This document shows, piece by piece, positions 1,281 through 29,098 of a DNA stretch of 33,412 nucleotides. A program made the position numbers and the translations under genes. Below the pieces are notes generated by a model. It ran no database searches. It saw nothing but the letters and a program-made list of their open reading frames with translations, and was not told the origin of the DNA. How positions within the stretch are numbered: the first letter of the stretch is position 1; every line of letters starts with the position of its first letter. Source of the stretch: Vermamoeba vermiformis (Eukaryota). The stretch spans positions 558,001 to 591,412 of the forward strand of contig JBEWZL010000300.1 of assembly GCA_045837725.1 (NCBI GenBank), in the 5' to 3' direction.

Positions 1281-4200
1281 ATGGAGCGACTAGAGGAACA
1301 ATTTTCGACCATCTTTCAAGATTTGTGCTTGATGGTCAATTTGGTGACTGAGTTCTTCGAGGAGCTCGTGCGAGATTCAGAAGATGTTACTTCACAATAT
1401 AATCAAGCGAAGAATAATATATTGGCTCAACTTGCCGACATCAAAAAAGTTTTTAGGATGCAGCCCAACCCTGACTTAAAACGGGCTGGAAAAACGGTAA
1501 GCAATATTTTATAATATTTATAATAATATTTTAAGCAAAATCTCGACGGTAACTCTTGCATAAAGTACGCAAGATTTTTTGAATCCTACCGTTGTACCCG
1601 ACAAAATTTTATCGTGAACTCGAGCACTAATATGACCAATACATCTATATTAATATTCTATTTCGTATTAAATCACAAAGTCTCGTTTCGGGCTTTTTTC
1701 TTGTTAGATTTACTTCACCAGCAATTCTAATGAAGCTGTATTACCTCACAATATTCTACGGTAAATCTAATATTACAATATTATATTTAGTTCGTTTCGA
1801 ATGTAGAAGCTTTCGTGCAGAATATTCAAGAGCATTTAGATCTGATCGACATCCCTACCGACTTTACCTCTTCGACTATGAACCAGTATTTAACATCTAT
1901 CGATATATCCATTAAAAATTGCGTGTCTCTTATTAGTGGACGAGGCGTAAGTATCTATTTAAAGGAGATCTCGGATCGCAACCTTGCGTAATCTTTTTGA
2001 CTTTAGTTAATTATTTTTTTAGAAATAACTCTATAATTATAATTTTTTATTAATATATTTCTCTTTTCAAATGATAGAGAAAGCTAGATTTTGAAGAAGA
2101 AGATTTGTACGAGATCCCGAATTACAGCCAAGTCGATGAAGAGGTCGAAAATGTTATTAGGGACCTATTACAAGATGCAAAAGAAATGACTAACACGCAG
2201 TTCACGTACAATTTTGACGCGCTCAACGAAATGATCGAAAATTCAGCGCAAATGATCGACATTACACTGGGCGATATCATAGCCAATCAGCCCTCGAGCG
2301 TGAATTCTCATTCAAACAATTCGAGCAACGGGTCACTTCCGACAAGCAACTCGGCATCACTGTTACAAGTGCCTGGTGTCAGTTCACCAACGAGTTTAAG
2401 TACCGCCAGCAACGGGGCCTCGAGTGCGCCCAGCACAGCTAACAATAGCGCCCAATCCTCGCCACAATTAGAGCGTGGTAGGAGTCAAGTGCAACTAGCA
2501 CAAAGGAGGTCTATTCCTAATTTACCACCGATCGATGCGATTATGAATCAACAAGGCGGATCTAGCACGAACCCCGTGCTGTCCCCGACATCAAATAATA
2601 ACGGAATGTCGCCAAAAATAGCAACACCGACGAGTCGAAGTCAGAGTCCAGGTAAGTTAACCATTACTAAATTTAGTAAGTCCTAACAATACCGCAGAAC
2701 CATCACTGCGGAGGTCGGTAGATAAACCTCCTTTGAGCAAAGTTCCATCGGTCCAAAAAGATTTAGCGAGTAGTCCTAAAACACCAAAAAGCGGCAATCC
2801 AGTCGTGACCACGACCAAACAACCGATCAAAATGGACAACGCGGCCATTCAGATCATGCGCAAGAAAGCACTCGATGAAGTTTTAAAATCCGAGTCTGAA
2901 TATGTAATATACTTAATTTTGGTTAACCAAGTAAGTACATTAGGCATCGATTATTATATAATGCTTATTATTATTTCTTTATTTAGAACTATTTACAACC
3001 GCTGAAGCAAGCTGCAGCAACGAAAAGAATTCCTATCACGGAAAAAGACGTCGCAGCATTGTTTTCATGCTTTGAAAGCGTTTGTAAATTTCACCAGAGC
3101 TTTTTGAAAGCACTCGAAATCAATTTTGCCAAGCACGCAACACCCGGTGAAGTGTTCAAGAAAATGGCGCCGATGATGAAAGTATACACGGGGTATATTG
3201 CGGATCAAGTACGAAGCACGGAGACTTTGCGGAAGTTTAGACGAAACACGAAAATTTCAAATTTCTTGGACGAATGCAAAGAAAAATCTGGTCAAGCGAA
3301 AGATTTGGAGGACCTACTTGACTTGCCTTATCAACGGCTCAATGTTTACGAAAATTTATTACAAGTACGTAGTTTAATTAAGCTCGGGACCTATTATTAA
3401 CGCCATACTATAGTCATTGATAAGTCTGACTGCTAAAGACCATCCTGATTACAAAACACTCGAGGAAGCGCAAAATGTCATTCACAGTGTCAACCAAGAA
3501 ATTCAAGAAAAAAATCGAGAACGAGAAGATCGAGGCAAAATTCTCGAGATCTCTAATAAGATCACGGGCATGCCTCCTCGCGTGGTACGTTGGAGCGAGT
3601 CTAAAAATAGCATTAGTATTTATTCCATATCAGGCACTTGTTGCTCCTCATCGCGTGTTTTTTAAAGAAGGCCAGTTGGAAATGAAACAATCTGATTGGA
3701 AGAAACAACGAGCCTCGTCATTCTTTGTATTTTTATTTAACGACATGGTATTAGTAACAAAAAAGCCAAGTAAGTACCGGATCTACTGCGCTTTGTACTG
3801 GATCTGATCGAACAATTTTTAGGCAAATTATCAACGTCAAGGAGGTTTGCAGTAGAAGCTATAATCAACTTACACGAGACACACTTGGACCATGGCGAAG
3901 AAGGTAATAATATATAATAGCACTAGTTCAAAAAAATTTTGAGATCCGATCGAGTACGGAAGCGGCGGAGTTTTGTGGTAGTATGGCAAGTAGTGACCCG
4001 AACACGATGCTGCAGTCGCTCATTTTTTCATTTTAATACCGCGCTGCTCTCGCAGCCCGTGGGTGAAATTTATTTAATGTCTAGCAATACAATATTACAT
4101 ATATCGACTTTCAACGCGCCCAGTTTGTTGTACTCCGCGTCGAAGCGAGCTCTGGCAGTACTAACGTACTGCGAGAGGGCTATTGGGTTTTCGCGGATGG

Positions 4201-6070
4201 CTTTGCGGGTCGCGTGAGCGATGCGTTGGCTGAGTATTGCGGACAGCGTGTTTGATATAGCCTTGGTGTAGTCGGATCGGATTTCGTCTGATGAGGGTCC
4301 TTCGTCAAAATGAAGCTTATAGATCGCGCGGCGGGTGAGCCAAAGTCTTGTTGATACGAGGATGAGGTCTAGGCCCGAGAAGTTGAGCGGGAGTATGTCG
4401 CTGGGCCTCCAATTGATGGGAGTCGTGGTGAGCTGACGATCGATGGCTGAACAGACTACGCTGACTTGAGATGCCGTAAAGCACTCAAACATCAGGTGGC
4501 AGTGAGTAATCTTCGTCTTGTGGTAGTTGCATTGCTCGTGGTGTTTGGGAGCATAGAAGTCCCGATGAAAGAAGCGGAACACGGCTGAGCGTTGATGACT
4601 CTTAGCGGGAGTGGTCGCGAGCTTGCCCCAGATGGTCGCCCAGTCGCAGCCATAGGAAGAGGTCCATTCCTGCTGGCCTGGTGTGGGGGCAAATTCGAGC
4701 GACTTGAGGAAGGGCCCGTAGATCTCCTTGAGTCTAGGGTAGTTGCCTGTGGTCACGGGGGCGTGCTTGGTGATCAGTGAGTACGAGGCAACTGAGTACT
4801 TCACAACATCAAAGTAAATGTGTTCGGCTTGGTAGTGGGCCAGCCACGGAGGCGAGTACAAGTCCTGGGGGTGCTGCTTAAGCGCCCTAATGTGAAGAGA
4901 GGCTAGTTGAGCCGGGCAGTCGCTCTCGGGCACGACCACACTAACAAGAATGCACCGCTTCCCGTCCGATCAGCGAAGTTAAGCTTGTTCAGGCCTTCTT
5001 AGTACTGGGGTAGGAGACTACCTGGGAATCGGAGGTGTTGTGCTCTTTACTTTTTGCTTTTAAACTTGCTGCTTCTCGCATTACACTTCTTTTTTGCAGC
5101 ATATATATTTTTTATGCTGGCTTATTGCAGTTTATTTTAGCTGATCCAAGTTTTCAAGATTGGCGAACCTATTTTTGTTTGATACTATTAGAACTTGCCT
5201 ACTACTAGACTAGTTTCTAACGTTTTTTTTTGTTTAGATCGCGTGGCGTTCTCGCTGTACGTGAGCAAAAAAGACATCTCGTACACGTTCTACGCTGAGG
5301 ACTACAACAAAAAAATGGAGTGGTTTGACACGATTGAGAAGTGCTTGCAAGGCTTGAAGAATGCACGATCAAAGTAAGTACAGTACAGTATAGTGTGCTC
5401 GGTTTGAAATTGTTGGGACTTTTTTTTCTTGCGGTGGATGTGCTAACAAGTCGAACAGGACGTTGGACAACAAAGGTGACGAAACAACAGCCACTAAACT
5501 TAAAATTAATCTGGTTGCCGGCAAGAACATGCTGCCTTCCTTATATGGTAAGTCAAACCGACGACAACTTTGAAAGTAGCTCGCACATCTAACTCTTCGG
5601 ATCTAGATCGAGCACACCTTGTAGTTATATTTAGAGTCGGTGAAAACGTGCTCGAAAGCAAAGTGAAGACAGCCAATGATATTTATGTCTGCAATCCGCT
5701 GTGGGACGAAGAATTCGTGATTGAAGTGTCGGATCCAAGCTCGGACATGTTGCGTGTCACAGTCAAAGATACGAGTTCAGATCGTATATTAGGCAAGACT
5801 AAGATCGTGTTATCCGATCTATATGAATACGTGCCTTCAGAGAAGTGGTACACATTGAAAGAAGCTGTCAATATTGAACGACCAGGCGAGATCTGTTTGG
5901 GTACGTAAATTCACTGGATCTGCTCGTAGAATTATAGGGCTAACAGTGCTTGCTTAGGCTTGACATTAGGAGAAGGTTTTCAATCAGCACAACCTGCGCC
6001 GCTAAAGTCTAGAGCGTCAGCGGTAAATATGGCCCAAAACAACAGAAAAATTAAAGCGAAAGACAAGTAA
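1281..6070 (+). CDS. RhoGEF with DH, PH and C-terminal C2 domains and a Ser/Asn-rich N-terminal linker; multi-exon
   Basis: DH motifs (RKKALDEVLKSESEYV; LLDLPYQRLNVYENLLQ; TAKDHPDYKTLEEA), PH motifs (RVFFKEG; FLFNDMVLVTK; YAEDYNKKMEWFDTI) and C2 motifs (NPLWDEEF; VTVKD...ILGKTKI). The last exon ends ...KAKDK-TAA at 6070. Exon boundaries between about 1500 and 2080 are less certain. Confidence 0.88.
4012..4021. repeat. Left copy of the 10-bp target-site duplication GCAGTCGCTC
   Basis: Exact match to 4916-4925; directly abuts the element's A-rich tail. Confidence 0.88.
4022..4915 (-). mobile_element. 5'-truncated non-LTR retrotransposon (L1/Tx1/TRE-like ORF2 C-terminus, 3' UTR and A-rich tail)
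   Basis: Open frame to TAA at 4070 containing W..IW.KL....K...R...FRFFH...CNYH......H.HLMFEC..A, a zf-RVT/CCHC-like C-terminal region of L1-clade ORF2. Visibly more GC-rich than the intron flanks. Short 3' UTR ends in TAAAATGAAAAAAT. Flanked by the direct repeat GCAGTCGCTC. The RT and endonuclease domains are absent. Confidence 0.82.
4916..4925. repeat. Right copy of the 10-bp target-site duplication GCAGTCGCTC (positions -12 to -3 of the 5S gene)
   Basis: Exact match to 4012-4021; the bases on either side differ between the two copies. Confidence 0.88.
4928..5046 (+). rRNA. 5S ribosomal RNA gene (119 nt, full length)
   Basis: GGGCACGACCACAC...CCCGTCCGATCAGCGAAGTTAAGC...GGCC...TTAGTACTGGGGTAGGAGACTACCTGGGAATC...GTGTTGTGCTCT. 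The 5' GGGCACGAC pairs with the 3' GTTGTGCTC (helix I). Box A-like AGTTAAGC and box C-like GGAGACTACCTGGGAA are present. Confidence 0.95.
5046..5055 (+). terminator. Pol III oligo(T) terminator of the 5S gene
   Basis: TTTACTTTTT immediately after helix I. Confidence 0.75.
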
Positions 6071-6141: not shown

Positions 6142-9100
6142 TTAATAATCGTAAAAGAACGGACTAACACGCTGTTCATTAACGCGCTTGAAAAAGTCGC
6201 AGTAGCGTGATGTAGACCCCTGCAAGACTTCCAAATTTGGAAAACGCCTCACGAAGATCGGTTCGCAAGCTGAGATCAATGAGTATATGAATAGCATATA
6301 ATCAATACAAGCACTTACCGTCAGTGACCGTAAAAGCGTAATCAATCACCAAATACTTCAAATTCGGACAGCATTCAGCCAGATAGAATATCGGCCAATC
6401 GCTTTGGGTTTGCAGACCACTTGATGACAAGTTTCTTATCTTCGTCAAACCTGTGTGAACCACCATTCGGCTACAAGATCCGTTAGACTCAGTTATGCTA
6501 GCGTGTGCACGTGACTTACTTCCAACTTTCTTCCTGCGAGCATGGTGCGTACAAGTACAAGTCGGTCAAGTCTGTGCACTTTTCTAAAATCAGCCCGAAG
6601 TCAATCTGTTTGTGGACTACAGGCGGTGGTGGAGGTGCTGGTGCCGGGTTGTTATTGACTTGTTGTTCTTGATTGTTCGCCGGTGGTGCATTTTGAGCAT
6701 TATTGTTCGCGTCGTTATTGTTATTCTGGCCTTCTTGTGCTGCATTGTTGTCGCCAGGCTGTTGAGCGCCATTATTATTATTGTTTTGCGCTGCTTGGTT
6801 GTTGTTATTTTGAACTTGATTGTTGTTGTTTTGAGCTTGATTGTTGTTATTCTGCGCTTGATTGTTATTGTTCTGTTGTTGCTGATTTGCTGGATTTTCT
6901 TCATCAGAAACAACAAACAGATCTAAATCTTGAATCTTCTTGCAGTGTTCGAGAATGGTGTAGGCGTCCGAAATGGTAATCTACGAATAGCCACATTAGG
7001 TCGTGATCGTTACTAACGGTATTATTATTATTCATCCTTACCCTAGAAAGTTCCAATTTGACGAGGTTAACGCACCGCACGAGAGGTGAGTAATTGACGT
7101 AAAAATTCCTCTGTTGGTCCCGGCCTAATCAATTAAAGTTAACAATGCATACGAAGAGTTAATCCATATCAATTGGTCCTTACTGTGCAAGGCACGCAAT
7201 GTCGTGCCTAACTGAGCAATGCCTTGCACAATAGCGTTGGTCACAGGCTTAACGTCCAACTTTAATTTTTGAAGCTTAGTGCAGTGCGAGGTCACCGTAT
7301 GGAGGAACTGATCGGACCCTGCAATGAGCATCGTTAGATTTTGTTCACAGATTGATTTTAATCGTACCATCGGTAAGATCACCGGACTTCACAATTGCAA
7401 AATTGGTCAAGTTGGTGCACGAAGAAATGCCGAAATAAGGTCCGTTAAAGCCTATTTCGCCTGTGTGCAATACTTTCAACGACCGCAAGTTCTTGCAGTA
7501 GTCGCCAATGTAATCGTGAATGTCTCGGTCAAAGTTACTGATCTCGCTGCCTTCAAGTTTGAAGCTTTCAAAAGTTCCAAATCGCTTGAACAGCTCGTCA
7601 TATTCAGCATTGGATAGCCGTCCAAAGAGCCATTCGCCTTCCAACTTGACTTTGCGCAGCTTAGGACACGCGTCAAATATGCCGTACAGCATCTTCTTGA
7701 GCACTAACGACGTGACATTCTCGTTCTCATTGGAGTGATATAACTGCACCGAAGTGAGATTCGGACAGCGCTTGAATACGCCAACAATGAGGTCGGAAAT
7801 GAGGTCGTGTTGCACGTCCTCAGGGAATCCAACGTCGATCGTTAGATGTTGCAATGATGTGCTGCCCGACTGCATCACGGAGTCGAGGTCAACCATCCAC
7901 TTGCGCGGGTCAGGTTTCTTGACCTGTTTGACTTTCTTCTTCTTCCAAGGCTTCTTTGGGTTAGCAGGGGCAGGCTGAGGTTGTTCGGGGTTCAATTCTC
8001 CGTCTTTGACTGCTTGGACTTTAGCTCGCTTCCAAGGAATGATGCGGTAGACCCTCAGTGACGTCAAATTCGTGTTTTTCTGGAACACTCCTCCGAGCCA
8101 CGAGACGGGATGGTCTCGATAAATGTTATAAATGTCAAGTTCTTTCAAGCTAGTGCACAAGCGCGGAATATCAAAGGTGGAATTGTAGATCTCGTCACTC
8201 ACGTTGCACGTTTCCACTTTAAACTTCTCTATCATGTGCATTTTATGCGCGATATCGGCGAAGAAGGAAGGCTTGTCCTGATGACGTTCCCACATGCGCC
8301 AAGTGATTGACACGACCAGTTCACTCCACAACAACTTCTGCTTGTCCACGATCATTTGAATGCTCTTGGACGTGGCTGCGAAATGGCGCAAGTCCCGTTT
8401 GTTCAGCTTGATGAGAATCAAGTTGATCAGCTCGCTTAAGAGAGGCAGTCGCTCAATCAAGCCAATCCTCTTTCGCTCGTGGTCGTCAAGCTCTTGACTG
8501 GACACTGGTTGGCCACGCTTTTGCAATCGTTCTTTACGTTCTTGCTTAACATGGCCTTTGGATTTGAGATGTGCTTGTAAGCTAAATACGCATTAGTAAA
8601 GAATTCACGGAGCTACATTGATTCAAGGGACATACCTCACAGCAGAAGTGAACTTCTTGTCGCACAACAAGCACTCGAATTCTTTCTTATTTGGTGAAGC
8701 GTGCTCGGGAGGCTTAACGGCATCGTCAGAACTTGTTTTCAGCGATAAAATGGGCTCCTGTTCTTCAACTGTTGTATAGTCTCCATTGTGCCCTACAAGT
8801 GCAATTAGGCGAGCTTGACCTTCGCGACGATCGTTTAATTATATATACCTTGCGCTTCACGCTCGTGCAACTCATTAATGTAAGCCAGTTGCTCTTTGGT
8901 CAAGTTTTCTTGACTAGCTCCAGCATCCAACAAGACTCGAATGATTTTATCGCGTGAGAACTTATCGGCTGCTAAAAATTCTTCGCGGTACTTGCAGTCA
9001 CTATTGAACGAGGTAAGTCCGATTATCGAGTCTTGTATTCCTCAAGCCACTGCTACTTACTCAGACAAGATGATTTGCAGCAGCGTCAAATTGTTCGGTC

Positions 9101-14942: not shown

Positions 14943-17659
14943 TTATTTTTCGGTGATCTCAGACGAAGAAGCGGAAGCAGCAGGCTTATCAGCGGGGTCG
15001 TTCTTCTTTTGCTTCAAGTACTCGTTCTCGGTTCTGAGCTTGTCGATCTCCTTGCGCAACTCGTTGAGCTCGTTCTCCAACTTCGATGAGTTTTCAGAGA
15101 GGGAGCTTTGAGGATGCGAGTGGGAGCTTGTCATAGCAGTGGTGTTCTTGTTGGTACCCCAAGCAGTACCATCATCACCGTCCTTCTTCAGCTTGGCCAT
15201 CAAGTGGATCTTGTTACCAAAGACAACGATGATAGTAGTCATGTTGGCCACAAAGATACCAATGCTGCGGATGATGAAACGTTCTTGACGGCTAATGGTG
15301 CTAACGAACTGCAATGCGGTGATGAGAGCAGAGATGATAACCAAGACGTAGATAACGAAGGCCAAGAGACGAGACTCGTTGTAGACCTTGTGAGGAACAG
15401 AACGGATGCGAACGGCCAAGTAGATACCGTAGCCCATCAGAATAGCGTTGTATCCCAAGGCAATGATAACGAAGGCGAAAGAGACCGGAGTAGCAGCCAT
15501 ATCAACGCTGCAGTCGGTGTACCAGAGAGCAGGGCGGTAGGGATCAGTCACGACAAGTTGCACGTCACTACCGAAGATTGCAATGATGATGCAGATGACA
15601 GCTTCAATACCGACGACCACTGCAGTAATGATGGAGAGCTTGGCGTCAGTAATAGCCTTGATGGTGAGGCGCTTGTCGTTGTACAAAGAGTGGATTCGCC
15701 ATGACTTAGCGAAGAGGCAACCAAAAGTGATGGTGAAGCCAATACCCAACAAGAGAGGAGTCAAGACGCAAGCAGCCTTGTCCAACCAGCTCAAGTTCCA
15801 GCTGAAGATGCTAGCATAAGACATGCAAGTACCGAACAGGACGTAAACCAAGAACAAAGCAGATGAGGCGCGGATAATCTTGTTCTTGCGGTTAGCAATG
15901 ACAACGATCATGAGGGCGATCGAGAAGACAATGCCAACAATAGCGAGAGCGAACATGGCCCACTCAGAAGGAGTGGTCGTAGGGTTGTAGATGCGCTCTG
16001 ACCAGGTGGGCATAGGGTAAACCAAGTTTTGCTAAATAGGATAATTAGAATGTGTTTCCTGCGTTTATAATATCAAAGGGATTCCACAAAATAATCGTTG
16101 GCCCTTTTTTGGACAGCACCTCACGAGATTTCAGCATAAAAATTGATATTATTTTTGTCAATTTACTGAAACGAGTGGCAGCTTGAATATACTGAGCTAA
16201 CAAGCAGCTTTGCCACGGCGGAGTATCAAATCATCACATAAGGTTATAATTTAAATTTGCAGGAATTGTTCCGGGTCGCGAAGATCCGCCGACCAAAATC
16301 GAATCAAATAATTAATGCTGATTTAAAATCACGTTTCATGTTGCTCAAATCGATATAATTTGCCTTGATTTAAAAGTTTTTAGGTATTGCTAAACTTACG
16401 AGCTGAACTCTGCTGGGACCAACGACGTTTACAACGCTAGTGTAGTTGGCAATTTCCTTACGGGCGTACTGAATCCATTCATCGCTGTTGGGGACGAACT
16501 GCAAGAAGGGAACGAAGCGAAGTTGCGAGTGATCTGCGCCGAACTGGTAAGGACCGAAGAAAGTGTCTACGTTAACTCGTCCCAAGGCACGTGTCACCTC
16601 GTTGTTGTCCAAACTATCAGCAGACTGGATGGCAAGCATGAGAAGCAAACCAGAGACGGCACCGATGGCTTGGTTAGCGTCAGCAGGACCAAGAGAAGCA
16701 TCCATGGTAGCGTCGAAAGCAGTAAGAAAATCCTTGTACGTGCCGAAGTAGTCACCTCTAAAATTAATACCAGGGGCAATGACGTCGCAGCCACTGACGA
16801 AGGCAACCAAAGAAGGGTCGAGAGCAAGGAAATCCGGAACGTAGTACGAGCTGATGTAGACAGCTTTAGGAGTGTAGTCCAACTTTCTGATGGCCTCCAA
16901 GAAGTAGCGACCGACGTTAGTGAAGCTAGCAATGACGACGGCGTCGAAAGTGTGCTCGTTAGTTCCATTTTGGTGATCAATGTCGCGGATGAGGGAAGCG
17001 ACATCCGAAATGTTTTTAATAAACGTATCATCAATGCCATTGAGAGTATCAGTAATTACGTTGTATTGAGCAACGATTTCGATGCTATAATCGTCGGCAT
17101 TTGAAACAAAACCTTTTCCAATGTCAATCTGGAAAGGTGTTTGTTCCACAACCAAAACAATCTTTCTAATGTTGTTAATTCGGAACTCCGGGAACGTAGT
17201 AGTAGCATATCGAGGAGGGGATGTTGTTACGGAGTAAGAGTATTCGGCACCAGTGTAGAATGAAGCCGATCCGACTTTGGTACCAAGAAGTAAGCGACCA
17301 GCGGGTTCTGTGATGGACTTGGCAGCTGAGCTGAGAGGAGAGCTCACGGGACCCAAGAAGAAGTTGATTTCGGAATCGTTAAGCATGGTTCGATAGTTTT
17401 GCTTGACGATCGTCGCGTTTCCATAATCTTCCATGTGCTTAATTGCAAAAGTTAAGCTTTCGTTCTTGTTGATTGTAATGTTCCAAGTGTTGGCTTTCTG
17501 AACGAAGAATTGAAGGCCGGCTAGAATTTGTTTGCCGTTCTGGTTGAGAAAGGAGGACGGCGCTTGAGTAGAAACGCTGATGCCAAAAGTGACCTGCGTC
17601 GAGTAGTAACCATAGAAGCAGCTCAAGAAGAGCAAGGCTGCAATTAAAACCTTGGCCAT
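14943..17659 (-). CDS. Class C (GABA-B-like / Dictyostelium Grl-like) GPCR; exons 17659-16400 and 16031-14943
   Basis: Signal peptide (MAKVLIAALLFLSCFYG), periplasmic-binding-type ectodomain (FFLGPVSS; VDTFFGPYQF), 7TM_3 motifs (IIRASSALFL, FGCLFAKSWRI, YNESRLLAF) and a C-terminal coiled coil. One 368-nt phase-0 intron. Confidence 0.92.
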
Positions 17660-17827
17660 TTGTGTTGTCGTGTGTGGCGTTGAATAACGAATAAAATTAA
17701 AGCGCAGTGTAAAATTTAAACAATTCCCACGAGACATGATTTGATCCCTTGTGATTCATTTTTGTGTTCGGCCGTATTAGTATTCCCACGATTGATTTAA
17801 ATTATGTTACCCGTGTTCCACCTTTTA

Positions 17828-17857
17828 TAGCGAAACAATAGTTACTGTAAAATTTGG
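17828..17857 (+). repeat. Left TIR TAGCGAAACAATAGTTACTGTAAAATTTGG
   Basis: Reverse complement of 20852-20881 apart from one T/C difference. Confidence 0.95.
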
Positions 17858-17997
17858 AGTCACCTGCCAATCAACTTGTCTCACTACTGGTGGAATTAAT
17901 TTTGTTTCCACCAAATTTCTGACCAATAGAATCACGCGTCAATAATTTTGATTTGTTTACGCCGACCTGTAGAATTATATGTAAAACAACGTGTAAC

Positions 17998-19164
17998 ATG
18001 GCCACAAATCAATTTGGTGGTGTATATTTCCCTGGGGCTTGTTACGATCAGTTACTCCGTATTCGAATACTGCAAGATTTGATTAGTCTTCAACCAAATC
18101 ATGGTGCAAAGAGTGAGCTCGCAAGAAAATACAGTGTTTCACCAGCGTATATATCAAAGTTAAATAATCTATTTGTGGAATATTTGACCGATCCTTCTGG
18201 AGAAAAAGCACGCAATCTACTTTTTTCTCGCTCGCACTGTAGGTTCATTAATTAAATTGGTAAATAATATTATAATTAACGCCTATATATCTAGCACACA
18301 TCCGTGAGTCACGTAAGCTGGATATTGAGAGCATTCTGTATATTTTACTGCTTGTTGAACAAAATCCGACCATCTACCTTTGGGAACTACAATTAATGCT
18401 TTATGCTCATCTCAATATCGAAGTATCAATGGAGACCATTCGAAAGACTATGATAGAGATCGGACTAACACATAAGAAAGTGTCAAGAGTGCATCTCCGC
18501 AGATTTACTCCCCGAAACATACAATGGCGACGAGTTTATTCGGAACTGATTAGCCAAGCAAACGTTGATAGATTATTTTATTTTGACGAATGTGGTTTTG
18601 CAAGGCGTGACACACAGCGAAATTATGGTTGGAGCGCATCTCGTCGTTGTGTAGCAATTGATGACTGGACGAGACTACCAGCGATTCAACTACTCGCATT
18701 AATGGGCAAGAATGGTGTGCAAGCGATTCAGCTCCTATCTGGTACAGTAACAAGCCTGCACATCTGCAACTACTTTCTTGTGCACGTGTTCCCGTTCTTA
18801 CCTCAAGGCTCTGTCATCGTGATGGACAATGCATCGATTCATCGTGGTGCAACATCGCAGTTCCTTGCCGACTTGCTGCAATTAAAGGACTCTGTTTTAA
18901 TTTTTTTGCCACCGTACTCGTAAGTCTACTTGAGTCTTTAAATTTGTTGTGCAAGCCACCAAAATACTAATAATATTTCTACCCTACAGACCTGACCTAA
19001 ACCCAATTGAAAATATGTTCGGGACGCTGAAATGCTTTATTAAAGATCAGCGATGTACAACAAACGAAGATCTGCTTGACAGCATTTTTCGTGGGATTGA
19101 TCTTATTACTCCAGAACATTGCACGAGCTGGTTCGTGCACTGTGGTATTGTTACTCCACAATAG
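17998..19164 (+). CDS. DDE transposase (DDE_3-type, DD37E), 3 exons; introns 18239-18294 and 18920-18989
   Basis: Paired-domain-like N-terminus (NQFGGVYFPG), PTIYLWEL, and catalytic YFDECGF, VMDNASIH and LPPYSPDLNPIE. There are 37 residues between the second D and the E after splicing, and no stops or frameshifts. Confidence 0.93.
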
Positions 19165-20706
19165 AGCGACAGTTTGGACAGTTATGATTTGTAGCAAACC
19201 AATTATCAATACAGTTTGCACAAAATATGTGCTTGCACGGCAATTCTCGTAACTCAACCCGTGAACTCAAAACATTCTCTCGACATATTGAACAGTCAAT
19301 TCTTGTGGCTGTGGCGTCGTTGTCATCGATTAGAATGGGAAGTTTGTTGATATCACGAACGGGAGTCGGCTCATTCGGTAAGCCAACCAAAAGCTACACA
19401 AAAGAGTTTTTAATGCACGACTCAATACTTTATCATTGTTGTTAATTACTAACTTCATAGTCATAGTCAGGGTCCCTAAATAATTCGGCGATCTGATCCG
19501 GGTCAAACTCTTCATCAGCGGCAATATTCACAGTTGTTATTTGACCTGAGCTATAGTTCAGAGTAAGTACTCGAGAGCTATCATCGGAAGCAGTCTCAGG
19601 CGAAGTAGGATCTTGCTCTTTAAGCCTTTGCGTGTCAGTCGAAGTGGCAAGCAGATCGGCAGGGTTTTTGATGAAGTTTTCACTGTTGTACAGACTAATA
19701 GGATTTGGCCTAATCATTATATCACGCAGGGTCCCAGGCCTAGACTTTGTGGATGGTGCACTGTTGCTTTGGGCGTTGTTCAGTGTGCTTGTGTACCGCG
19801 AAACAACGTCGTTGATCACTTGACTTGTTGGAGGAGCTGTTGACAACAACCCACTCTGATTACCTTGTAATTGGCTTGTAGGTTGCAGGGAAGGCTGCTC
19901 TACAGGCCTAGGTGCCAGAGTTGGATGTGGTGCTGGACTTGGACTCGGATGAGGGTAGGGCGGAAACAGAGACCAGTTACCCCAAGGTGCTTGCATTGGC
20001 ATTGAGCCTTGGCCTAATGAGCACCAATATGGATATTGTGGTGGTGGCTGTGGCCAGAAAGAGTAGGTTTGCGGATGTGGATACGGATACGGCGGTAAGT
20101 ACTGTGGTGCTCCATAAGTGTTTCCTGGGGCAATTGAATTTACAGCACTTGTATTTAGGCCGTCTTGTGCTGAATTTGGTGCCTCTGGTGGAACTTGCGA
20201 CGTTAGACGTTTGTACGAAGCCTGCATCCGAGCAACTTGTGAATCTCCTTTTGTTTCTTTCAAAAACTGCTCGTTTAATTGGCCTGCAAGGGTGTTGCTC
20301 TTTGGCAATGAATTTGAAAGCGCCTGAGCTGGGTTTTCATGATCTAAATAATAAATTCGAGGAAGTTAGTTGTGAAACCAAGACCACTTGGGCACGTACT
20401 AATCGCCTTGGCTAGTATTTCACCTAAATCCACTTTTGGTCGCTTTGGTGCTCCCTGTTGCTCGTGGCTTGCTACTTCAGCAATCTTTCTTTTTGGGCAT
20501 TGGTGGCCTTTTTTCGATACACCACACTGAATACATTTTTGAACAGTTCCAACAGGTGGTCCTTTTTTACTCTTTGTGTCGCTATCAAGGAGCTCAAAGA
20601 ATTTGTTAATAAATGTCTCTCGCGAGGTTTCTGGTAATTGTCCGCTCTTTATTTTGCCATCAACGATGGCAATCGCCTTTTCGTAATTATCAGCTCGGGA
20701 AGTCAT
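19151..20706 (-). CDS. Transposon cargo gene: CxxCG..KKGH.C zinc knuckle, Pro/Gln/Tyr-rich linker and C-terminal RING finger; exons 20706-20400, 20343-19454, 19393-19151
   Basis: Three ORF-track pieces join in frame through gtacgt..ttag and gttagt..gtag introns. CIQCGVSKKGHQC is near the N-terminus; CSICRE...LPCKHIFCANCIDNWFATNHNCPNCR is at the C-terminus. Confidence 0.85.
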
Positions 20707-20851
20707 TTGTGGTGGATCTATGCAAAACTACCAATACAATTCACAACCGGTTTGTAAGTGTCAAAAAATCAGCGTTTGGCGTTAAGAAATTTGGCAGAAT
20801 GTTTCGCTATTGTTTGACGTTTTGTAATTCACAAAGCTAGTGATTCAAAGA

Positions 20852-20881
20852 CCAAATTTTACGGTAACTATTGTTTCGCTA
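20852..20881 (-). repeat. Right TIR (plus strand CCAAATTTTACGGTAACTATTGTTTCGCTA)
   Basis: 29/30 match to the left TIR; followed by TA. Confidence 0.95.
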
Positions 20882-21785
20882 TATTACACCTAATACAATC
20901 CATGATGAACACGGTGTTTCAATTTCAGTGACAGCTGTCACGTAAATTGTGACATTGTTGGTAAATAGCATCTGGAACTCGGCAACAGTTCAGAACTCGT
21001 AAATATCATCTCTTTAAGTTTATTGGGTTAAGCGTAATTATTAAAAGCTTTCGATTAAAGGCGGAAAAACCCTGTGCAAAACCTATGTGACCTACTATTT
21101 CGGTGACAGTTTAAATTAATTCAATCACAATTCGAAGCACTGGAACACCCAGTGGAATTAATTGGTTAGCCTTATAAATGCCTTTAATGTTTCATCCGAT
21201 TACGAAAAACTTCAGATCGAGATCGGTTTCAAATTTGGAAGTGAATCATCACCTTCATTAATTAATGCTTGTCTACTTGTTTTACGCAACAAAGAATGCC
21301 TTTTATACCCTTAGATAAAAAGGTCAATACTTGAGCGTAAATTGTTACAAGATTGCTGGCGGCCGCCTGGCACAAGGTTAACTTCACTTCTTATTAAAAC
21401 GAGAGTCTATCACCTCGGTTAAGTTTTGTCTGCCAACCTTATACGAAATTTGAATCGACTTTGCTTGGGCTCCGTTTGTGAGGTTAGCGGAGCGATTTCA
21501 TGAAAATGAATAATTGCAAAAGTTAGAAAGTTTGCGGGGTGTGACATCATATCTCGTGCACGCTGATTGTGGAATTACTCCAAACACACGCTTCATTCTT
21601 CGGCAGCACTTACTCCCCGGATAATTCCACTTCGAATTCCGAGGTTACGCGTGCAATCAGGCTCTTGTCCGTTTAATAAATCATTTCTTTGTAATAAATG
21701 CTAGAACAGGAACGAAATAGTGCTTGTTCGGCGAAACAAAAATGTGATAGGTGGGCAGAACGATTATTTTGTCAACATTGCTTCA

Positions 21786-25454: not shown

Positions 25455-25679
25455 GACACGTGTACTTTGTTATCAATAGCGCTATTAAACAGCCGCTTAC
25501 CTAGTACGTACCTTATTAACAGCTATTTTTTGGTCCGCCAATCACTTTCGTTCTTTTTTTTATTTTTAGCCAACCAATCCCGTGCGTTTTATCTTTACAA
25601 CCAAACATAAATTCCATTTTTTGTTGTTTATTTCATTCAAGGTTAACAAGCAACATCGCATCTCTACAATAATAAACAA

Positions 25680-26255
25680 ATGGAATACAAAGTTGTTCTC
25701 ATGGGTTCTGGCAGCGTCGGCAAGAGCGCCATTACGATTCAATTTATCAACAACCACTTCATCGACTGCTACGATCCCACAATCGAAGATAGCTACAGAA
25801 AGCAAATCGTCTGCGACGACGAAAGCTGCTTACTCGATATCTTAGACACAGCCGGCCAAGAAGAGTACAGTGCTATGCGAGATCAATACATGCGCTTCGG
25901 CTCTGGTTTCATGCTTGTCTACTCGATCACCTCTCGCTCGACGTTCGAAGAAGTTCAAACTCAATTCCACGATCAGATTCTTCATGTCAAAGAGCTCGAC
26001 AAATGCCCAATGGTGCTGATCGGAAACAAGAGTGATCTGGAGAACATGCGCGAAGTCACAACTGCTGAAGGACAACAACTTGCCAAGCAATACGGCATTC
26101 CCTTCTTCGAGACTAGCGCTCTTGGTCACATTAACATTGACGAAAGCTTCCGAGCTTTGGTTCGCGAGATTCGCAAATTCAACAACAGGGAATCTGGCGA
26201 CGCGAAAGCCACTAGAAAGCGCGTCAAGAAGATGAAGAAGTGTAAGATTTTGTAA
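25680..26255 (+). CDS. Ras-family small GTPase, intronless
   Basis: [33 protein letters not shown], polybasic tail and CaaX (CKIL). Confidence 0.97.
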
Positions 26256-26733: not shown

Positions 26734-29098
26734 TTAACTGTGCTGAGAATTCACATTGAAAGACTCAAGTGTTGAGCCAAGAGGTCCCAGGAACTCCTCC
26801 ATGTTCGTAACAATGGCAAGAGGATAAGAGGTCAGCTCTACCAGCCTCTCTACAAATGAGTCTTCCTCTTGTTGGTTTGTTACAATCAAAACCAGGGTAT
26901 TATGGCTAAGCTTAGTCAGAAATTTCTTCGCTTCTCCATCAGTTGTTTTGCATGCATGCTGCAGAGTGCTATAAAAGTCACGAACACTATTAGCAACTTC
27001 AATTGCTGTAAGCTTGGAAATGCCACTGGTAAATTTGGTCTGATGTGCAAGCAACAACAGCTCTGCCTCCTCATCTTCGTTTTCAGGGGGCATAGTGAAG
27101 AATTGAAAGCCATCGATGCCTGAGGCACCTGCTGTATTTAAAAAAGCCTTCTTTTCAAGTTCCTTCAAGTTAAGTGCACCTCCTCTGCAAACAGGCCACG
27201 GCAACTTAGCTGAGGGCCAACAATGTGTTAATGAGAGAAATTTCTGTTCTTTCAGTAGTATCTGCCTGTCCTCCATAGCATCTTGCTCTGTATTTACAAA
27301 CTGGGCACCAGGTAGCAATTCACTCAGTTTGAATGTTCTTGGCTCCAAGACTGGTTAAGGCTTGCACACGCAGAATTTGTGCCATTAACAAGACTTTCTC
27401 AAAGTCTGCACATGACAATTCATTAGCAGGATCATGCAAGTGTGCCCACAAATTCTCCAAGCACAGGACAGGTGCAGATTGTGAAAGGAAGATGAATGGG
27501 ATTGTGGGATACAGAATGTTGCCTCTTTTCTTGCACTGAATGATGCCACGAGAAAGTATGTCTTCTAATGTTATGCCATCAAACACTTTTGCTGATGGTG
27601 CATAGGGCCATCCACTAAATGCCCAGTGTTGTGCTGCCATTGCTATTTGAATCCCTGATTCAGTTCTGTCTTCAATTTTGAAGTGTTCTTGTGCAAATGA
27701 ACGTAACTGTTCTGCAATAATGCTGAAATCAAGATTGAATTTTGGGTCACTGCAGAGGCCAAAGAGCTTTTCAAGTATCCAAGGAATGCCTCCACTGTCT
27801 GACAGTAAACGTCTTAATTGTTTGTTGTTTTTCCCATGGTGTACATGTTGGAGCCAACCAAGCTTGCCTTCAGCCACTGCAGTGTCAATCAACTCATCTA
27901 CTTCAGTCATTGTTAAGAGAGAAAGGTCAATTGGTTCCACAGGACCTTCAGCAGCCCCGTTATCTTTCATCAGTGCATCACTGAATGACTCAAACAGTGT
28001 GCCACTGAGCAGCAACAGTGAGAATGTTGGAGCAAACTTTGCATAGACAGAAGTGAGGATAGTGATTGCGTCTACAGCCACACCATGAGGAAGCAGGGAT
28101 TGGAATTCATCAACATGCCAATATAATGTCAATTTGTTGTTTGGAGTTGAGTACACTTTGACTAGATAATTAGCAAGCTCTTTGATTGAGAACCACTCTG
28201 GTGGATTGCAATTCCACTTTCTTACAAGAGATGCAAAAAAGTCTTCTGGTGCCTCGTCAATCTTGAAGAATGCATAAATTGCTCGTGTCACCAGCAACCA
28301 CTCAGCTAACTGTTTGTTTGGCACGCTTAAGTCAGAGTTAGTGATTCTAGAGCAATTTCCAAACGTGATGGGAATGCGCAGAACATTGGCCAAGTATTTG
28401 TTTAGTTCTTCAGGGGTATTGGGATCCAAGCAAGCTCTTTCGGCAAGTAGTGAAGGCAGCTGAAAACCAAATCTCGTTTTGCCAATTCCCGGTGGACCGG
28501 TGGCAAACAAGCGGTAATGATGGTTGCGTTCATCGTACTGATGTGCCTTCCAACTAGTGTAATGCAACGTCACCGCCTTCCACGCTTTATCGACGGCGTG
28601 TGTCCTTCCCACTAAAGGCATAGTCGTGTCGAGTACGTGCATCTGCAAAAATTTAGCGGATTTGATTTTTTGATGTTCGCCGCTTATCTTACTTCGCTTC
28701 TTCTTTCATATGGAGCCAAAAATGATGCCATATCGGAAAGCCATCGAACTTTACGACGAATTGGCATTACAATGTATCTGCCTGCAAAATTGAATCCGAT
28801 CAGATCAGTTCGATTTAATCGCCAATATTCTTAGATAAATGAACAAATATTATAATATGTTTTGCAAAAAGTAAATTAAGTCGTACTCCAAAGATTTTCT
28901 CTTTTCGGGATTCGCCTCTGGTCTTGCGTCGCATCCTTTTTTTGCTTGGTGGCCGTAAGCTCACGTGTGCTTCTGTAATTATTGGCATTTTTTGGGCTCT
29001 GGCAAGGTGGCTTAAAAGCTATAAAAGATTAGCTTAGCTAGATATTGTTTTAATGTCTTACGTCGGCCATTCCGTCGTTTTGTGGGAGTATTGCTCAT
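26734..29098 (-). pseudogene. Crinkler-type P-loop NTPase + PD-(D/E)xK-like nuclease gene with one frameshift near 27335 (pseudogene or assembly error)
   Basis: PLVGR, Walker A GPPGIGKT, Walker B YWHVDEFQ, LLLSGT, DSGGIPW; C-terminal N.AGASGID...LLLAHQTK in a different frame. Three short 5' exons splice in from ATG 29098 (less certain). Confidence 0.7.

Follow-up and report, generated by a model that had tools for sequence, protein, structure and literature searches.

A mobile DD37E transposon of Vermamoeba vermiformis with two convergent genes, a spliced transposase gene and a predicted RING-finger gene

Introduction

Why would a transposon of a kind known for its minimal make-up carry a second gene, and does this gene serve the element? 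The question is raised by a locus of Vermamoeba vermiformis at which an element of 3,054 bp (17828-20881) holds two convergent genes, one for a transposase and one for a predicted protein with a C-terminal RING domain, referred to here as the RING gene. All positions are counted within the analysed window of 33,412 nt (JBEWZL010000300.1, 558,001-591,412). In the passages of PMC7325037 and PMC10379824 that deal with the Tc1/IS630/mariner group, the textbook minimal transposon has one transposase between short repeats, and Tc1-type elements, DD37E groups included, are about 1.3 kb long with usually just one open reading frame (ORF) that lacks introns. According to the same passages extra ORFs occur only in the TBE/Tec elements of ciliates, and only two Tc1/mariner elements have been found in Amoebozoa. 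In the element described here a RING gene stands beside the transposase gene.

We found that this is a mobile Tc1/IS630-type element whose transposase gene is expressed and spliced and whose two genes have been amplified together, a layout that is unusual for elements of this kind. The reading that we prefer, with modest confidence, is that of an autonomous cut-and-paste transposon which belongs to the IS630/Tc1/mariner superfamily, was mobile recently, is of the DD37E DDE_3 type and whose family carries the second gene as an integral part. Moreover, we infer that the RING gene is an accessory gene for a putative element-encoded E3 ubiquitin ligase that aids the element.

Results

Element ends, target site and mobility

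The element is bounded by inverted-repeat arms of 32 nt (17826-17857 and 20852-20883) that are complementary at 31 of 32 positions. The 32-mer arm has only these two sites in the window, with none expected from 100 shuffles. Since the TA at the outer edge of either arm is the duplicated target site (17826-17827 on the left, 20882-20883 on the right, both read directly from the sequence), the terminal inverted repeats (TIRs) proper measure 30 bp and match at 29 positions, the left one lying at 17828-17857 on the plus strand and the right one at 20852-20881 on the minus strand. A 10-nt core of the TIR has three exact copies in the window, all of them inside the element; the third is an inner copy on the minus strand that is present at the right end only (20800-20809). 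When sites with one mismatch were included, 8 matches were counted in comparison to 3.0 expected, a number reached in 2 of 100 shuffles. Beyond the TIRs no sub-terminal similarity of the two ends was detected (score 51, shuffle mean 50.3, standard deviation 7.9), and no further copy or fragment of either gene was found elsewhere in the window. The start codons of the transposase gene and the RING gene lie 172 and 177 nt, respectively, from the outer ends of the element, and the two genes overlap by 14 bp at their stop codons.

Mobility was assessed with assembled contigs of the sequencing run X2, which may be the sample of the window itself and in which contig depth serves as a proxy for copy number and not as a count. 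The flanking contigs have depths of 344, 415 and 305. Within the element the depths are 2958 (17826-18177), 2839 (18209-18920), 2639 (18891-19905), 2065 (19947-20311) and 2179 (20282-20622), which corresponds to an approximately 6- to 9-fold excess of similar size in the transposase gene and the RING gene. It follows that the majority of copies contain the two genes in identical sequence. Among the 12 of 18 loose contig ends listed, at least six lie at the TIR edges and continue into unlike flanks, at 17825 and 17826 before the element and at 20881-20886 behind it; on the left such contigs were seen in X2 and in a second run, X7. In addition, one X2 contig with a depth of 191 joins 17827 directly to 20915 and has 31 flank letters replaced. 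Judged by eye, the replaced letters are similar to the right flank, with agreement at 17 of the first 20, and the contig has neighbouring variant positions in common. This joint represents the empty site of a diverged allele, in which a single TA has been kept.

With the TA duplication, the TIRs, the DDE triad described below and the mobility, the element belongs to the IS630/Tc1/mariner superfamily. An earlier note on this DNA, made from the letters alone, had described TA-flanked 30-bp TIRs identical at 29 of 30 positions and genes starting about 170 bp inside the ends. The repeat comparison and the single-TA empty allele bear out the former, and the distances of 172 and 177 nt agree with the latter.

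Several further observations concern the copies and their flanks. Two haplotypes or strains are present in X2 at 17701-17780 and 20958-20979, where the variant flank has a depth of 148-191 out of 406-493; this variant flank is the one linked to the empty site. Over the last approximately 340 bp of the element (20544-20881) the summed depth in X2 rises to 6,500-8,700, compared with about 2,100-2,900 elsewhere in the element, and contigs diverge inward at 20815 and 20846, which suggests extra partial copies or short derivatives with a common right end. One alternative right flank is nearly identical in two runs (at the loose ends 20881 of X2 and 20884 of X7, one letter different in the part shown), so that at least one other insertion site may be common to both samples. 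Element pieces from X7 and from the metagenome X3 (within 17881-20798) show no mismatch over 2,228 and 2,919 nt, respectively. The host flanks at 16826-17794 and 20958-21286 differ by about 1-3% (25 of 839 positions in X7; 11 of 361, 2 of 231 and 2 of 333 in X3). The element could have spread later than the lineages of X7 and X3 split, in a comparison that is biased because the runs were chosen for words of the element.

The transposase gene and its transcript

Gene models were built by enumerating all GT..AG pairs that keep the frames open. The transposase gene lies on the plus strand, starts with the ATG at 17998 and encodes 346 amino acids in three exons. Exon 1 (17998-18238) ends one base into codon 81; it is presumed to encode the N-terminal DNA-binding part and matched no Pfam family at E<=1. 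It is followed by intron 1 (18239-18294; 56 nt, GTAGGT..TAG). Exon 2 (18295-18919) encodes a putative second helix-turn-helix (HTH) as well as the catalytic core, which holds D178 and D258. Intron 2 (18920-18989; 70 nt, GTAAGT..CAG) follows, and its removal restores the motif PPYSPDLNPIE. Exon 3 (18990-19164) carries E296 and ends with the stop codon at 19162-19164.

The product matches the Pfam family DDE_3 above the family cut-off (1.7e-9). The match to HTH_Tnp_Tc3_2 is weak (4e-5) and with 24.3 bits below the cut-off of 31.5, and that to the NCBIfam IS630 model NF033545 (1.2e-18) is below the cut-off of 100 bits. We take the motifs around D178, D258 and E296 to be those of the catalytic triad; 37 residues separate D258 and E296, which defines the DD37E type. 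The neighbours of the transposase in a protein language model are DDE_3 clusters throughout, from bacteria, giant viruses and fungi. A search of exon 2 against the PDB sequences revealed no transposase match. The intact DD37E element with two convergent genes that the earlier note had described is thus confirmed by the TIRs, the domain matches and the triad.

Expression was examined in X7, which is an RNA run, since its contigs are spliced. The X7 contig of record 18 (1,533 nt, no mismatch) spans 17923-18238, 18295-18919 and 18990-19376, and both transposase introns are spliced out at exactly the predicted joints (18238 to 18295 and 18919 to 18990).

The second gene and its predicted protein

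The RING gene lies on the minus strand. It starts with the ATG at 20706, and its three predicted exons encode 479 amino acids, or 471 if the alternative donor at 20423 is used. Exon 1 (20400-20706) would encode a helical hairpin, a knuckle with the spacing C-x2-C-x6-H-x-C and basic patches resembling nuclear localization signals (PKRK and PKRPK, C-terminal to the knuckle). Predicted intron A (20344-20399; GTACGT..TAG) is 56 nt long with a CTAAC branch-like site, or 80 nt with the donor at 20423. Exon 2 (19454-20343) contributes a low-complexity linker rich in Pro, Ser and Gln, in an open frame of 307 codons. Predicted intron B (19394-19453; 60 nt, GTTAGT..TAG) resulted from the splice enumeration. 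Exon 3 (19151-19393, stop codon at 19151-19153) encodes an acidic stretch and the C-terminal RING.

The RING domain matches the Pfam families zf-RING_2 (5.4e-13) and zf-C3HC4 (2.1e-8) and, among the PDB sequences, ZNRF3 (2.2e-10), Arkadia (7e-10), RNF38 (6e-9) and RLIM (8.9e-9). All eight metal ligands are present in cross-brace spacing and align with those of the active E3 ligases ZNRF3, Arkadia and ARK2C. Compared with these ligases the positions of an Ile, a Trp, a Pro and the Arg after the eighth Cys are kept as well, which we take to be contacts to the E2-ubiquitin conjugate.

The knuckle differs in spacing from the C-x2-C-x4-H-x4-C of zf-CCHC, and no Pfam family matched it at E<=1. In the AlphaFold2 model of exon 1 (mean predicted local distance difference test score, pLDDT, 68.8) two helices are formed by residues 4-21 and 26-45. 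The hairpin of residues 1-45 has a pLDDT of about 87, and the knuckle after it is modelled at lower confidence. A Foldseek search of this model against the PDB yielded only helical-hairpin noise (best E 2.3). The middle 296 residues consist of 14% Pro and 12% Ser and contain the motifs LPPY and PPQY; no Pfam family was found for exon 2. Close to the RING there are two hydrophobic-acidic patches, ILIDDND and a VLTL that follows a Ser/Asp run. A complex prediction of the three transposase exon chains together with RING-gene exon 1 gave a score of 0.00, which is evidence neither for nor against an interaction. The earlier note had proposed a protein made of a Zn-knuckle, a low-complexity part and a RING. 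Its RING and its linker stand, while the knuckle has a non-CCHC spacing and is without a Pfam match.

RNA over the right half of the element

The transposase transcript runs on beyond its stop codon. In X7 record 18 continues antisense to the RING gene, with the introns 19378-19466 and 19563-19729 removed. In record 19 a third plus-strand intron is removed (20095-20158), and the RNA continues through 20344-20376. The donors of these three introns are strong (GTAAGC, GTAAGT and GTAAGT). The end of record 19, at 20376, falls 21 nt beyond the first plus-strand AATAAA downstream of the transposase stop (20350-20355). Contig ends are no proof of RNA ends, and contigs reveal no strand. Together the two records define a non-coding 3' continuation of the transposase transcript on the plus strand (19165-20376), so that approximately 1.2 kb of antisense RNA to the RING gene was observed. 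A separate contig, record 20, covers 20412-20710 and thus nearly exactly RING-gene exon 1, and the stretch between it and record 19 (20377-20411) has no coverage. A minus-strand RNA of its own would fit this pattern. The RNA check of four introns suggested in the earlier note has succeeded for two of them, both in the transposase gene on the plus strand, and the two minus-strand introns of the RING gene stand as predictions. The raw RNA run X21 is no test of these models, since it contains no reads on the element and none on the expressed neighbouring gene either.

These data bring up an explanation in which there is no second protein at all. The right half would serve the transposase transcript as an extended 3' region with introns, and the RING frame on the minus strand would be a decaying relic. 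The spliced RNA over 19165-20376 is all plus-strand, with three strong donors, and the AATAAA lies 21 nt short of the end of record 19, as this explanation would have it. We nevertheless judge it improbable. An open frame of 307 codons would arise by chance with a probability of about 6e-9 per frame, three frames are joined via short GT..AG introns with a CTAAC-like site, and the RING is complete in all eight ligands with an E value of 5.4e-13. Furthermore, exon 1 is open in a relative of about 60% identity, described below, and the separate X7 contig at 20412-20710 matches this exon beyond an uncovered gap. The spliced plus-strand RNA itself contains no open frame longer than 94 amino acids, and for this reason we also rejected the idea that it encodes a second plus-strand protein.

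A further observation concerns the AT-rich segment 19378-19466. The intron observed there on the plus strand has a GTAAGC donor and a TACTAAC branch-like site, the minus-strand intron predicted at 19394-19453 lies wholly within it, and the same segment may be spliced out from both strands.

Relatives and the origin of the second gene

For transposase exon 2, 119 candidates yielded three significant matches, one of them close. This close relative (P0001) is 78% identical over 207 amino acids without a gap and is encoded on a 1181-bp NCBI contig. The two others share 26-42% identity and have precomputed Pfam HTH and DDE_3 domains, presumably of IS630 type.

For RING-gene exon 1, three matches at E<=0.001 were obtained among 1.84 billion representatives (P0004, P0005 and P0006). 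P0005, on a 1570-bp NCBI contig, is 59-61% identical across the whole exon. Its start codon, knuckle and basic patch are kept, and the sole gap comprises 4 residues in frame. The similarity extends to the residues before 20400 and fades at the start of the predicted 56-nt intron A. P0006 is a predicted protein of Phaeodactylum tricornutum with 455 amino acids and four knuckles of the form C-x2-C-G-V-P-x-K-G-H-x-C-P, of which the RING protein has one. No Pfam family covers the motif of these repeats, and it looks like an undescribed small zinc module. P0004 was rejected as a tandem-repeat artefact.

Searches with the transposase alignment and the exon-1 alignment found no relative in metagenome contigs, none in the prokaryotic genome contigs scanned and none in the viral contigs scanned with both alignments. 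In a protein atlas the best score for RING-gene exon 1 was 0.81, below use. The element family is rare in the databases. The frames of P0001 and P0005 remain open at their divergence with at most one in-frame gap, which argues for constraint on both genes.

Instead of being part of the family, the RING gene might be a passenger, a host RING-finger gene that was captured once together with its introns, copied passively in a very recent burst and useless to the element. We consider this possible, though rather unlikely. The copies are so alike that long contigs stay unbroken, such as the 1015 nt at 18891-19905 in X2; at such near-identity intact frames need no selection and prove youth only. Ordinary cellular genes encode C-terminal RING proteins of the same type, and the X7 contigs hold no RNA evidence for the RING gene.

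This last point belongs to a set of observations that weigh against an integral second gene. No minus-strand CT..AC joint is present among the six joints listed, which are five plus-strand GT..AG joints and the empty site. Record 19 reads through the predicted RING-gene acceptor at 20344, and if the observed plus-strand introns are removed, the minus-strand frame breaks. No relative was found for RING-gene exon 2 or exon 3: exon 2 gave 547 candidates and no significant match in a set of 5.8 billion proteins, and exon 3 gave no candidates in a search confined to proteins of near length, longer ones not being searched, which leaves room for a full-length cellular parent. P0001 and P0005 come from two separate short contigs, of 1181 and 1570 bp, and P0005 could be a host gene. 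In the metagenome X3 the depth of the element (3.8-5.3) is near that of the flanks (2.6-4.2).

The layout of the element speaks against a passenger. The arrangement is tight and symmetric, with similar distances of both start codons from the ends, the 14-bp overlap at the stop codons and no filler DNA, and the GC content at third codon positions of the RING gene equals that of the transposase gene (0.383 and 0.375). Of the three exon-1 matches only P0005 spans the whole exon, and it lies on a short NCBI contig like the close relative of the transposase. To our knowledge, gene capture is untypical of Tc1/mariner elements. The earlier note had favoured a two-gene family over a chance capture, a view supported by the depth, the other flanks, the empty allele and the one relative for each gene.

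Surrounding window

The element lies next to a class C G-protein-coupled receptor-like gene on the minus strand (14946-17755), with matches to Peripla_BP_6 (2.7e-17; also ANF_receptor) and 7tm_3 (3.2e-42). Its ATG is at 17657, and the element is inserted approximately 170 bp upstream, in the promoter region. The receptor gene is well expressed in X7 (depth 111), where its contig ends 7 nt upstream of the ATG. Elsewhere in the window we noted a Ras-family GTPase frame on the plus strand (25647-26252) and three long open frames on the minus strand without a Pfam family at E<=0.001, at 7345-8592 (415 amino acids), 27320-28705 (461 amino acids) and 4070-4969 (299 amino acids).

Discussion

If the RING gene is an integral part of the family, as we prefer to read it, the domains of its predicted product outline how it might act. 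The gene would be transcribed from the right end of the element and spliced twice. Its product would be a nuclear protein whose helical hairpin and zinc knuckle may bind nucleic acid or chromatin and whose disordered linker would supply short docking motifs. Its RING at the C-terminus is of the type found in Arkadia, RNF38 and ZNRF3 and would bring in an E2. The most likely target of ubiquitination would be a host factor that limits transposition or expression; control of the transposase level appears less likely.

The overlap of the two transcription units adds a possible layer of control. Should the RING mRNA also use the AATAAA at 19041-19036, the overlap would amount to about 1.3 kb. The two units could restrain each other via double-stranded RNA or transcriptional interference, and the overlapping convergent transcripts may couple or damp the expression of both genes.

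A more specific version of these ideas is counter-defence. The product would be a nuclear E3 ligase on chromatin or nucleic acid that might act like a SUMO-targeted ligase and clear a host silencing factor from the element copies, with the antisense overlap tying the expression of both genes together. The comparison with SUMO-targeted ligases is suggested by the hydrophobic-acidic patches (VLTL and ILIDDND) that adjoin the Arkadia-like RING. We regard this version as speculative and unlikely to be correct in full. If it were true, the element would be the first transposon of Tc1/IS630 type with an anti-silencing gene that encodes a ubiquitin ligase.

Either origin of the second gene would be of interest. 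If the RING gene serves the element, even the simplest cut-and-paste elements can bear host-manipulating functions, and the element would offer a small and tractable system for the use of the ubiquitin pathway by a transposon. If the gene is a passenger, it would document how a Tc1-like element captured an entire gene together with its introns, of which few cases are on record. Moreover, with convergent overlapping transcripts and introns on both strands of one segment, some of them predicted, the element presents a compact case for antisense control in mobile DNA.

Compared with known DD37E elements, namely TRT, Mosquito, L18 and impala, our element has in common the TA duplication, short TIRs, a DDE_3-type transposase of about 340 amino acids and the 37-residue spacing, as far as these are described in the passages of PMC10379824 and PMC7325037. 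In contrast to the DD37E plan of about 1.3 kb with one ORF given in the passage of PMC10379824, it measures 3,054 bp and has two genes with two confirmed and two predicted introns. The nearest sequence models of the transposase are IS630-like, and the element is set beside the DD37E families by its features, not by a tree.

The passage of PMC7325037 on the ciliate TBE/Tec elements describes the same superfamily with extra ORFs, one of which is on the complementary strand. However, in TBE/Tec elements the TIRs are about 700 bp long, the ORFs number three, the transposase is of the DD34E type and there is a site-specific recombinase, whereas our element has 30-bp TIRs, two genes and a DD37E transposase. 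They are tied to ciliate germline biology, and that passage of PMC7325037 mentions no RING gene. Our own search of the literature, which was limited and left supplements outside it, found no RING-encoding Tc1/mariner element.

A transposase and a second gene within one TIR pair are likewise found in MuDR (mudrA and mudrB), in PIF/Harbinger elements (transposase and a Myb-like protein) and in ProtoRAG (a RAG1-like protein with a RING and a RAG2-like protein). The gene pairs of MuDR and ProtoRAG are convergent as well. However, all three belong to other transposase superfamilies, and the RING of RAG1 is fused to the transposase, whereas it forms part of a separate protein here. RAG1 and RAG2 are argued, in the passage of PMC4411706, to derive from one transposon. 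For counter-defence the passage of PMC10398659 offers VANC of the Arabidopsis VANDAL elements, which are Mutator-like, as a protein that acts against the silencing of its own family by the host. VANC binds DNA in a sequence-specific manner and is not a RING protein, and the analogy to the RING gene is a functional one only.

The closest counterparts of the RING itself are cellular E3 ligases. As in ZNRF3, Arkadia/RNF111, ARK2C/RNF165, RNF38 and RLIM, the domain is located at the very C-terminus, and the ligands are aligned with E values of 2e-10 to 9e-9. In contrast to these ligases the fifth ligand is Cys in place of His, giving a C3HC4 and not a C3H2C3 type, the remainder of the protein is unrelated, and the gene is borne by a transposon.

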